A stretch of 40,294 nt of DNA, taken from assembly GCA_038872135.1 (NCBI GenBank), contig JAVZGN010000007.1, positions 1 to 40,294 of the forward strand. The letters are read 5' to 3'. Positions 18,714-20,758 of the stretch are shown in pieces. Numbering within the stretch: position 1 is the stretch's first letter; the number at the start of each line of letters is the position of its first letter. A program made the position numbers and the translations under genes. Source of the stretch: Candidatus Hadarchaeales archaeon. GTDB lineage: Archaea > Hadarchaeota > Hadarchaeia > Hadarchaeales > Hadarchaeaceae. A model generated the notes under the pieces. That model worked only from the letters and a program-made list of their open reading frames with translations, was not told the DNA's origin and did not search any database.

Positions 18714-19100
18714 TCACCTCACATTTCCGTCCATCGCTAAATGAGATTTTCCTCTAACATATATAACTGCGACGCCTTTCCTCCTGAGTTTTCTTTTCAG
18801 CTCTCCGTCGGCTGTTCCCACAGGGGTTCCCATTTCCTCAGCCAGTGAAAGAATACATGCATCGGCGTCTCCCTCAGCCCTAACTATCTTGCACTTTTCA
18901 ACCATCTTCAATGCAAGCCTTGCAGCGCTCCTTTCCCTTGGGGTTCCTCTTTCGGCAATTTTTTCCAGCTCACGGAGGACTGGAGATGGAACTAAAAATT
19001 CACACTTATCCTCCAAAACCCTCTCGCTCTCTGCCGTGATGTCAATTTTTAACATTCCAGGGAGCATGAGAAAGCTCGTGTCCGCGATCACTTTGATCAT
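18714..19100 (-). CDS. PIN domain protein (Fcf1/Utp24-like archaeal nuclease)
   Basis: VIADTSFLM, VLRELE, ADACI and TADGEL. Conserved position downstream of eif2g. Confidence 0.88.
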   Translation of the reverse strand: MIKVIADTSFLMLPGMLKIDITAESERVLEDKCEFLVPSPVLRELEKIAERGTPRERSAARLALKMVEKCKIVRAEGDADACILSLAEEMGTPVGTADGELKRKLRRKGVAVIYVRGKSHLAMDGNVR

Positions 19101-19101
19101 C

Positions 19102-20319
19102 TCATCCCGCCTTCAGCGTTCCATGACCTATGAGCCTCCATTTGTTGGCGATCTTCCTGCTGATGGCTACCCTAGAGCCAGCCTCGGCGCAAACTGGGGT
19201 CTTCAGCGCTAGGGAAACTCTGTCTCCCCTAACGCTGGTTATGGTTGCCAGCCTCGCTGCGGTTCCGATGTTGAGCATCAGCAGCTCCCCGTGGGTGAGG
19301 GATTTCACCTCAAGCTCCTTCGGTAGCCCAACCACCCTCTCCAGAAGGTGAACCTCAAGCTCAAGGGTGTTCCAGACTGGAGGCAGAGCCCCTGGCCTTC
19401 CAACCACCGATCCAACCAGGGCATCGGCCTTTGTCAGGGATGGATCAAGCATCGTTCCGAGCCCAACAAGTCCACCGGGAACCGCCTCCTTCAACGCAGC
19501 GTCCCCGGCGTGAATGCTCGCAATCTTTGTTGTAAGGTGCTGCCAGGTTGTCCTGTCCTTGTGGACGATGGGTATTCCAGGCCTTATCTCTATTTCATCG
19601 CCAACGCTGAGCCTTCCTCTGAGGATGGTTCCACCAACAACCCCTCCCTTCAGGTTCTCCACCTTTGTCCCGGGCTTGTTCACATCGAAGGATCTTGCCA
19701 CCGGGAGAAGAGGGGGTTTGCTTAGGTCCCTGGGAGGCGTCGGGATGATACTCTCGATTGCCTCTATGAGCTTGTCGATATTGGCTTTGTGAATGGCGGA
19801 GACGGGGATGATTGGGGCATCGCGGTAGCTCGTCCCTTCAAGGAAATTCTTTATCTGCTGGTAGTTTTCAATTGCCTTTTCCTTGGAGACAAGCTCAACC
19901 TTGTTCTGGACGACGACGATGTTCTTCACTCCCAAGATTTCCAGCGCCATCACATGCTCCTTGGTCTGGGGCTGAGGGCAGGGCTCATTTGCTGCAACGA
20001 CCAGCAGGGCCCCGTCCATTATCGCCGCCCCTGAGAGCATCGTGGCCATAAGCATCTCATGGCCGGGGGCATCGACAAAAGAGACCCTTCTAAGAAACTC
20101 TGTCTCGGCCCCGCAATAGGGGCATTTGCTCTTGTTGCTGTACCTCTCACATTCAGGGCAGCGGTAGAAAGAGACATCGGCGTAGCCAAGCTTTATCGTT
20201 ATACCCCTCTTGATCTCCTCGCTGTGGGTGTCGGTCCAAACTCCCGTGAGTGCCTCAGTCAGCGTCGTCTTGCCGTGGTCTATGTGGCCGATCATCCCGA
20301 TGTTTACCGTGGCCTGCGT
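19102..20319 (-). CDS. eif2g: Translation initiation factor 2 subunit gamma
   Basis: [36 protein letters not shown] and WRLIG. Homology (QATVNIG) extends upstream of ATG 20295. Start placed at ACG 20319 by inference. Confidence 0.95.
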
Positions 20320-20359
20320 TGCACCACCTGTAATCCTATAGCTTGGGGGTAAAAGAAGA

Positions 20360-20758
20360 TTAGGATGCCTTCTTTTCTTCCTTTGGTGGGAAGATTTGAT
20401 CCAGAGGCTTTTCTCCTTTTTTCACAACCTTTGTGTTTATCTGAACTATCGCATCAGAAATCTGAGCTCCACGAACCCTCTTCCTTCTCCTCTCTCCCTT
20501 CCTTCTTGGCCTGAACCCCGGGCCGGATGCAAGGACTATGCTCGTCCTTCCTGTTCCAGAGATGTCTTTTCTCATCGGGAAGCCGTCCTTATCGCTGCCC
20601 CCAGTTATCTGGAGTTCATAACCACTCAGGCCGAGAATCACCCCATCGAACTTATCGCCAATCTTCAGCCCGATGAGCCTTCTCGCCTCTGGGTCTTTTA
20701 CCTCCGTTTGATAGCTCCTCCCCGTTTCCGGGTCTGAGATGACGATCTTAAACGGCAT
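20360..20758 (-). CDS. rps6e: 30S ribosomal protein S6e
   Basis: [20 protein letters not shown] and [10 protein letters not shown]. Confidence 0.97.

Follow-up and report, generated by a model that had tools for sequence, protein, structure and literature searches.

In Escherichia coli, infC, the gene of initiation factor IF3, starts at AUU and is under translational autocontrol (PMC5499595), and the result of changing this AUU to AUG is that of Butler et al. 1987 (cited in PMC4705826). In eukaryotes, eIF1 regulates its own synthesis through start-codon stringency by way of an AUG in poor context (PMC6237735), and upstream open reading frames (uORFs) of eIF5 provide auto- and cross-regulation via stringency (PMC3326321). 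Here, we analyse a 40,294-nucleotide stretch of DNA from Candidatus Hadarchaeales archaeon (assembly GCA_038872135.1, contig JAVZGN010000007.1; hereafter the window), in which the gene for the gamma subunit of archaeal initiation factor 2 (aIF2-gamma) probably starts at an ACG codon behind a Shine-Dalgarno (SD) sequence, at the slot that holds the start codon in related genomes.

The locus resembles infC in that a gene for a factor of start-codon selection, lying among ribosomal-protein genes, has a probable non-canonical start served by an SD. The two differ in domain of life, factor and codon. IF3 itself rejects AUU and its loop is direct, whereas aIF2-gamma is a tRNA carrier, and the closer counterpart of IF3 is aIF1, whose gene in the same genome appears to start at CTG. 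The eIF1 and eIF5 circuits use homologous machinery (eIF1 corresponding to aIF1, and eIF2-gamma to aIF2-gamma) and wire factor synthesis to stringency, but they act through Kozak context and uORFs on scanned mRNAs rather than through a near-cognate codon behind an SD. We know of no report that eIF2-gamma is controlled via stringency.

Non-canonical starts have been validated by N-terminal proteomics in Deinococcus deserti (PMC2830850), and measurements of all 64 codons in E. coli found that ACG-started GFP bears N-terminal Met, with some Thr (bioRxiv 10.1101/063800). They show that real proteins can begin, with Met, at ATC, CTG or ACG, but they come from bacteria and from genes other than those of initiation factors, and ACG is very weak among them. 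Many organelle ACG starts are edited to AUG. ACG stands at the start of conserved essential genes of chloroplasts and plant mitochondria (PMC9845219); unlike these, the homologous slots described here also hold ATA, CTG and ATC. For archaea, a review of translation names only AUG, GUG and UUG as starts (PMC7531240), and in Haloferax ribosome profiling the near-cognate sites, about 30% of the putative alternative starts, were set aside (PMC7261190). In the open literature, subscription-only papers being outside the scope of the search, we found no report of an archaeal ACG start, of start codons in Hadarchaeota, or of near-cognate starts of aIF1 or aIF2.

Results

Evidence for a probable ACG start of aIF2-gamma

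On the minus strand, the start region reads TAT AGG ATT ACA GGT GGT GCA ACG CAG GCC ACG GTA AAC ATC GGG ATG. The following features define it:

20422 to 20424, minus strand: in-frame upstream stop TGA, which closes the frame
20322 to 20329, minus strand: SD AGGTGGTG, complementary to the 16S rRNA 3' end GATCACCTCCT
20317 to 20319, minus strand: ACG, the proposed start codon, in frame, 5 nt after GGTG, at the start slot of the relatives and kept in sequencing runs X1-X3
20304 to 20327, minus strand: out-of-frame mini-ORF GTG GTG CAA CGC AGG CCA CGG TAA, overlapping the start region
20293 to 20295, minus strand: first in-frame ATG, an internal Met (residue 9) in NIG-M-IGH, strand beta-1
19102 to 20319, minus strand: aIF2-gamma coding sequence from ACG to TGA, 405 codons plus stop (TIGR03680, PDB 1kk0)

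A preliminary description of this DNA had placed the conserved strand QATVNIG upstream of the first ATG (20295) and had noted an SD-like sequence (20329-20322) just before an in-frame ACG (20319-20317); both observations are confirmed on the minus-strand text, as is its statement that no ATG, GTG or TTG occurs in frame between the TGA at 20424-20422 and the ATG at 20295. The 16S rRNA of the window genome (G000) ends in ...GATCACCTCCT, so that the AGGTGGT of the SD forms 7 pairs with it, including one G:U pair. GGTG and ACG are 5 nt apart. When the long open frames of G000 are measured in the same way, from GGTG to the first canonical start, 5 nt is also the most common spacing, with 88 cases, ahead of 7 nt with 35.

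The QATVNIG codons between ACG and ATG 20295 differ from those of the closely related genome G001 at 5 synonymous and 0 non-synonymous positions, which indicates that these seven codons are translated; to judge from this comparison, they are under purifying selection. An AF2 model of the protein, built on a 15-sequence alignment (A1), runs strand 7-10 across M9 at low confidence, and with pLDDT <50 for residues 1-16 it gives weak support for the position of beta-1. RNA folding found the start region less structured than shuffled controls (z = +1.26), and for this reason no riboswitch-like element is proposed.

Start codons of aIF2-gamma in related genomes

We surveyed aIF2-gamma starts in the GTDB family of the window (f1), where 43 of the 46 genomes searched had the gene and 40 were readable; the others were G024 and G042, which have an intein in the P-loop, and G053, whose match lacks the N-terminus. 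All compared genomes are metagenome-assembled genomes (MAGs), and since related genomes are not independent, we give counts in place of statistical tests. Outside f1 and one class labelled Thermoprotei, the survey is a sample. The genus of the window (g1) includes G000, G001, G002 and G003, and its sister genus (g2) includes G004, G015 and G022.

In 36 of the 40 readable f1 genes, a GGTG-type SD is followed after 3-8 nt by ATG, GTG or TTG, and this codon leads straight into (P/S/T)-Q-A-x-V-N-I-G; the relatives carry GGTG(A/G)T at the SD position. In G000, it is ACG that directly precedes Q-A-T-V-N-I-G. All 15 readable genomes from other families of the order are canonical, and in three of them (L027, L034, L036) the start lies directly before Q-A, giving M-Q-A. 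The remaining 4 of the 40 f1 genes hold a near-cognate codon at the slot, ACG in three (G000, G015, G022) and ATA in one (G004). The texts are GGT GAT AAA ACG CCG CAG GCG in G015, GTG GTA AAA ACG GCG CAG GCG in G022, and AGGTGAT TGA ATA GCA CAA GCG in G004, and each near-cognate codon follows GGTGAT or GGTGGT by 3-5 nt. In G004, the ATA comes immediately after an in-frame TGA, and the only possible alternative start is the GTG for the V of VNIG, 20 nt past the SD core. Comparison of 5' ends, as proposed in the preliminary description, gives near-cognate codons in G015, G022 and G004 and canonical starts in the other readable relatives. The position of M9 is M or L among the relatives, within NIG[ML][IV]GH just before the P-loop. 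The match of the G004 gene is split because of a scaffold gap: the gene (L218) is broken by a run of N, not by a frameshift.

A maximum-likelihood (ML) tree built from 29 aIF2-gamma proteins unites g1 and g2 in a single clade (support 97/98), which holds all four near-cognate genes. Within it, G000 groups with G015 and G022 (91/90), and G004 with the ATG users G001 and G003 (81/78). On this topology, the near-cognate slot would either be old in the g1/g2 clade, with reversions, or have arisen two or three times; in both cases, it has been retained along branches of 0.2-0.3 changes per site. In G000, G001, G004, G015 and G022, a TTTTTA(C/T/G)-like box, located by eye, ends 28-30 nt before the slot, so that box, SD and slot are arranged alike in genomes with ATG and in those with a near-cognate codon. 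A metagenome scan returned no relative above 70% identity, and hence no second assembly of the same species from the collection scanned.

The ACG in sequencing runs

The runs in which the stretch occurs are hot-spring metagenomes, and no RNA run was listed among them. We compared four runs with positions 20000-20700, X1 from one study (P1) and X2 and X3 from another (P2) among them. The X1 contig shows 0 differences from the window over 20215-20401 and the X2 contig 2 differences over 20300-20509; the X3 contig differs at 3 positions over 20205-20509 (20257 A>G, 20322 C>T and 20402 C>T). X4 does not cover 20312-20503. Positions 20317-20319 are unchanged in X1, X2 and X3, with no inserted or missing letters. 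The variant at 20322 turns the second out-of-frame GTG into GTA, which argues against a role for that codon. A sequencing error at the ACG is unlikely, because the same ACG appears without an indel in contigs of three runs from two studies. Both alternatives raised in the preliminary description lose ground here: a T-to-C error is at odds with the ACG in all three contigs, and a 1-nt deletion after GTG CAA with the absence of any indel in them and with the loss of the second GTG in X3.

Taken with the homology of the slot, the ACG, ACG and ATA of the sister genus and the purifying selection on the codons that follow, this agreement among contigs supports the earlier proposal that the gene starts at an SD-served ACG. 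We consider it likely that aIF2-gamma is translated from the ACG at 20319-20317.

The aIF2-gamma gene and its product

The frame 19102..20319 contains no internal stop codon. The product scores 650.6 bits against the aIF2 gamma profile TIGR03680 (cut-off 514.5), residues 2-403 covering profile positions 3-407 of 407, and 658.9 bits against NF003077 (cut-off 315). Residues 2-403 align in one stretch with residues 8-409 of the Pyrococcus abyssi aIF2-gamma structure (1kk0_A, 601 bits), Q2 matching chain residue 8, and the three-domain length is complete. The P-loop GHIDHGKT is invariant among relatives, as are the knuckle cysteines C54, C57, C66 and C69 in alignment A1. This is the single copy in G000, the next matches being paralogous GTPases with 31-35% identity, and genes for the partner subunits aIF2-alpha and aIF2-beta are also present. 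Given the profile and structure scores, the conserved P-loop and cysteines and the lack of a second copy, the gene is, as far as these comparisons go, intact and working and not a pseudogene. In two relatives, G024 (L021, L063, L235) and G042 (L233), the P-loop contains an intein-like insert, past which the extein resumes (...GGIVSHN, then TTLTEAL) after GHxDHGK.

Start codon of aIF1

We turned to the aIF1 gene since, in archaea, discrimination against non-AUG codons has been reported for this factor (PMC4705826, PMC6237735); S. solfataricus aIF1 is reported to reject an AUU mRNA in vitro (PMC4705826). The gene lies outside the window:

G000 C4:41839-42147 (L372:1474-1782), minus strand: aIF1/SUI1 gene, identified with Pfam

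By Pfam, the gene order around it is uL22, uS3, uL29, aIF1 and RNase P p29. Upstream of the N-terminal CxxCG.P...C.C knuckle, the frame lacks any canonical start; it does contain a CTG, 8 nt beyond GGTG and 2 nt past the uL29 stop. Among the 45 of 46 f1 genomes with the gene, the slot holds CTG in 34, ATA in 2 (G060, G011), GTG in 4 and ATG in 5. The aIF1 slot is thus near-cognate in 36 of 45 family genomes, a conservation that would be of the infC type. Most CTG genomes have an in-frame stop one codon before the CTG, and the codons after it (P/Q-E-I/V-C) vary synonymously. TTG occurs at the slot in 0 of the 45 genomes, though CTG to TTG is a single transition.

In the other four families of the order, aIF1 starts with ATG in 18 of 18 readable genomes. 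Their text, GGAGGTGCG TAA CAG CTA ATG CCT GAA ATA TGC, corresponds to GGAGGTGCG TAA GAG CTG CCG GAG GTA TGC in f1, and this comparison shows the f1 family to have lost the ATG codon of aIF1, the neighbouring Leu codon having apparently become the start. The aIF1 start is canonical in 10 genomes of other lineages and in 71 of 71 parsed genomes of three further classes; outside f1, 0 of 99 archaeal genomes had a near-cognate aIF1 start.

A second lineage with probable near-cognate aIF2-gamma starts

In the class titled Thermoprotei/Thermoproteales archaeon, 111 of 120 genomes had aIF2-gamma and 110 were readable. Three of these lack a canonical start before N-I-G: G078 (L242; GGAGG TGA ATA CCA CTG GCG) and G077 (L243; GGGG TGA TCC TTA CTG TAT) have CTG, and G113 (L301/L113; GAGGTGAAC TAG ATC GCA) has ATC. 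All three have a strong SD with an in-frame stop within it or immediately behind it, and 6-7 nt separate GGTG from the near-cognate codon. The aIF1 genes of these three genomes start with ATG, so that near-cognate starts of aIF1 and aIF2-gamma are not strictly linked. S6e lies directly upstream of aIF2-gamma in this class as well, with a canonical start in 19 of 19 parsed loci.

Several further candidates were not counted. G112 (L307) has ATC at the slot and an in-frame GTG inside the SD. The metagenome contig L161 has ACG at GGTG+7 and no canonical start; its sister L143 uses a GTG that immediately follows the S6e stop, and as L161 has this GTG in another frame, an indel is equally likely and the contig is ambiguous. 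CTG stands at the SD slot of L096 (Ca. Culexarchaeum nevadense) and L108 (a Methanomethylicia MAG), 6 nt after GGTG in the leader TTG AAG GTG AT(C/T) T(T/A)C CTG; their only in-frame canonical codons lie inside the SD itself, and they possibly represent further CTG starts. Beyond G004, G015 and L161, no other near-cognate loci were found among the 74 of 80 genome-contig and 78 of 80 metagenome-contig loci that were read.

Candidate near-cognate starts elsewhere in the genome

Across 1082 coding ORFs of G000, ACG with an SD showed no excess before the first canonical start (3 of 75 pre-start ACG, about the all-codon average). A stricter rescan of 1158 ORFs left 25 sites, of which aIF2-gamma was the only ACG. 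Besides aIF1, further probable CTG starts of G000 lie at C4 + 57214, C6 - 53334, C8 + 6747, C2 - 63761 and C14 + 3491, behind SDs of 7-8 nt at a spacing of 4-5 nt; one of these genes encodes a pilin-like protein that would lose its class III signal peptide if it began at the first canonical start.

We also screened orthologues between G000 and 400 kb of G015, a part that does not include the aIF2-gamma and S6e genes, with a coding-potential filter. In the resulting 214 pairs, the codon of G015 that lines up with the start in G000 was ATG in 88, GTG in 23, TTG in 16 and ACG in 1, the single ACG having an ATG five codons upstream. One CTG, 5 nt after GGTGAT, resembles a real start. On the basis of this screen, near-cognate starts would occur in roughly 0.5% of genes or fewer. 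Among the other initiation factor genes of G000, aIF1A (ATG), aIF2-alpha (TTG) and aIF2-beta (ATG) have canonical starts.

Neighbouring genes and other features

Around aIF2-gamma, the window contains:

20360 to 20758, minus strand: S6e ribosomal protein gene (NF003294, 187 bits, cut-off 135)
20348 to 20355, minus strand: TATA-like CTTTTACC, a candidate promoter element
18714 to 19100, minus strand: PIN_9/Fcf1-like gene (PF18477, 97.6 bits)

The S6e stop TAA (20362-20360) precedes the ACG by 40 nt. The ATG of the PIN_9 gene begins 1 nt past the aIF2-gamma stop, which places the two genes in the same operon; the PIN start is canonical in 28 of 28 parsed loci and, by eye, in G015 and G022. In most family members (L004-L012, L203-L230), the stretch between S6e and aIF2-gamma contains a conserved GTTTTATAT-like motif, some 33-38 nt ahead of the aIF2-gamma start, which is probably an internal promoter. 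The positions of the TATA-like boxes were counted by eye. The S6e start is canonical in 29 of 31 genomes; in G015 (L002) and G022 (L003), the SD-served slot, about 450 nt upstream of aIF2-gamma, reads GGT GAT GAC ACG CCG TTC AAA, with no canonical codon until a GTG 4 codons downstream of the ACG. The 16S rRNA gene of G000 (L041, contig C26:5037-7437) measures 2401 nt against a model of 1478 positions and probably carries one or more introns or inserts.

Discussion

We propose that the duplex of AGGTGGTG with the 16S rRNA 3' end would set the ACG in the P site at the spacing most common in the genome, where Met-tRNAi (anticodon CAU) would pair with it despite one central C:A mismatch. The protein would then begin M-Q-A-T-V-N-I-G, and its yield would be lower than from AUG. 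Initiation at ACG, insertion of Met and the reduced yield are what we infer from the sequence; an initiator-like tRNA(CAU) with the GGG/CCC anticodon stem is present in G000.

Several explanations would do without an ACG start. The ACG could be an artefact of sequencing or assembly, either a T-to-C error or a lost base that once put the GTG of the SD in frame. The window comes from a MAG, the evidence from the runs consists of Logan contigs of depth 2-6 and not of raw reads, so that rare variants would go unseen, and X1 is possibly the source sample of the window assembly; the last two points also weigh against the start proposed here. X2 and X3, from the other study and with single-nucleotide polymorphisms of their own, nevertheless keep the ACG without an indel, X3 destroys the second GTG, and the homologous slot holds ACG, ACG and ATA in three further species-level MAGs, so we give an artefact very little credence. 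Translation from the ATG at 20295, the first canonical codon in frame and the one that a gene caller would pick, would yield a protein without Q-A-T-V-N-I-G. This codon lies 29 nt past the SD core and falls on the M/L position of the conserved NIG[ML][IV]GH; the codons upstream of it differ from those of G001 only synonymously, the TIGR03680 and 1kk0 alignments begin at residue 2, and the modelled strand spans it, if at low pLDDT. We regard a start there as very unlikely, and a start at a near-cognate codon further upstream (ATT 20334-20332 or AGG 20337-20335), for example on a short-leader mRNA, as slightly more improbable still. Both of these codons precede the SD, coding conservation is absent there among the relatives, and G003, G004 and G020 (L004) have an in-frame stop within two codons of the slot. 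C-to-U editing of the mRNA, as in plant organelles, would make AUG of the ACG, which is the codon that such a change repairs, and could act at the two adjacent genes with ACG in G015 and G022. We know of no mRNA editing in archaea, and editing is not a common explanation for these slots, since ATA (G004), CTG (G077, G078 and aIF1 in 34 genomes) and ATC (G113) cannot be converted to AUG in this way; it is hardly credible here. We practically discount both a frameshift from the out-of-frame GTG of the SD and a dedicated initiator-like tRNA reading ACG. GTG GTG does lie 2-5 nt upstream of the ACG (at 20327 and 20324), but there is no slippery heptamer, the GTG frame reaches TAA (20306-20304) after 7 codons, the GTG belongs to the SD, as in every GGTG-type SD, and one of the two is removed in X3. 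No special initiator tRNA with anticodon CGU was found in G000, where the sole tRNA with that anticodon is an ordinary elongator tRNA for Thr, a near copy of tRNA-Thr(UGU).

A different alternative accepts the ACG start and denies it a function, as a slightly deleterious or neutral change tolerated thanks to a strong SD and possibly coupling to S6e. Consistent with this, near-cognate codons are confined to 4 of 40 family genomes, the close relatives G001-G003 use ATG, G000 has further CTG-start candidates, CTG, ATC and possibly ACG are found at homologous slots in another class, and an aIF1 made from CTG in the family may relax stringency generally. ACG to ATG, however, is a single transition, yet the three sampled populations all retain ACG, as do both G015 and G022; just 1 of the 214 G015/G000 pairs has ACG at an aligned start, with an ATG nearby upstream; and in G000, the factor genes with near-cognate codons are precisely those of the two factors involved in choosing the start codon, those of aIF1A, aIF2-alpha and aIF2-beta being canonical. 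We think this explanation unlikely, though deserving of consideration.

What a weak start would do for the cell may be read in two ways, which are compatible and not exclusive. It may lower the output of factor genes that sit behind ribosomal-protein genes, S6e preceding aIF2-gamma and uL29 preceding aIF1; this seems to us quite possible, if short of an even chance. Alternatively or in addition, aIF2-gamma and aIF1 may share one fidelity-sensing feedback on the strictness of start-codon selection, a reading that we put forward tentatively. The weak start would tie aIF2-gamma synthesis to a strictness set mainly by aIF1, and aIF1 would hold down its own synthesis, in the manner of IF3 and eIF1, and that of aIF2-gamma with it. 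A loop of this kind is plausible, centred on aIF1 rather than on aIF2-gamma as the preliminary description had suggested, because it is aIF1 that carries a conserved CTG start in the f1 family. With similar reserve, we suggest that the family may possess a fidelity circuit of near-cognate starts, in which aIF1 is made from CUG or AUA and, in a sub-clade, aIF2-gamma from ACG or AUA; the synthesis of both factors would then fall under strict selection and rise under lax selection.

Several observations weigh against the proposed start or against a function for it. In E. coli, ACG belongs to a codon class giving 0.1-1% of the AUG yield (bioRxiv 10.1101/063800), which seems low for an essential factor, and the sign of any feedback through aIF2 is not derivable from sequence. 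A possible alternative start, an in-frame GTG, lies 9 codons upstream in G015 and 3 codons upstream in G022. A near-cognate start is evidently not required, since it is confined to 4 of the 40 f1 genomes and the same-genus G001, G002 and G003 use ATG. About 6 convincing CTG candidates, aIF1 among them, were found in the 1158 ORFs of G000, and given these other probable CTG starts, the near-cognate codons could be tolerated drift at strong SDs or coupled junctions, with no regulatory role. Finally, the ACG on S6e, a ribosomal protein, in G015 and G022 fits no functional reading neatly.

Gene callers will cut both genes short, starting aIF2-gamma at M9 and aIF1 at a GTG within the zinc knuckle, and the annotations and marker-gene alignments of the lineage are for this reason probably wrong at these loci. 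If the proposed starts are true, archaea use near-cognate codons for core genes, with aIF2-gamma made from ACG and aIF1 from CUG in 34 of 45 family genomes. They would also offer a concrete and testable candidate for feedback on initiation fidelity in the third domain of life. Such a system would be an archaeal counterpart of the AUU start of infC and of the eIF1/eIF5 network, and loops of this kind would then exist in all three domains.

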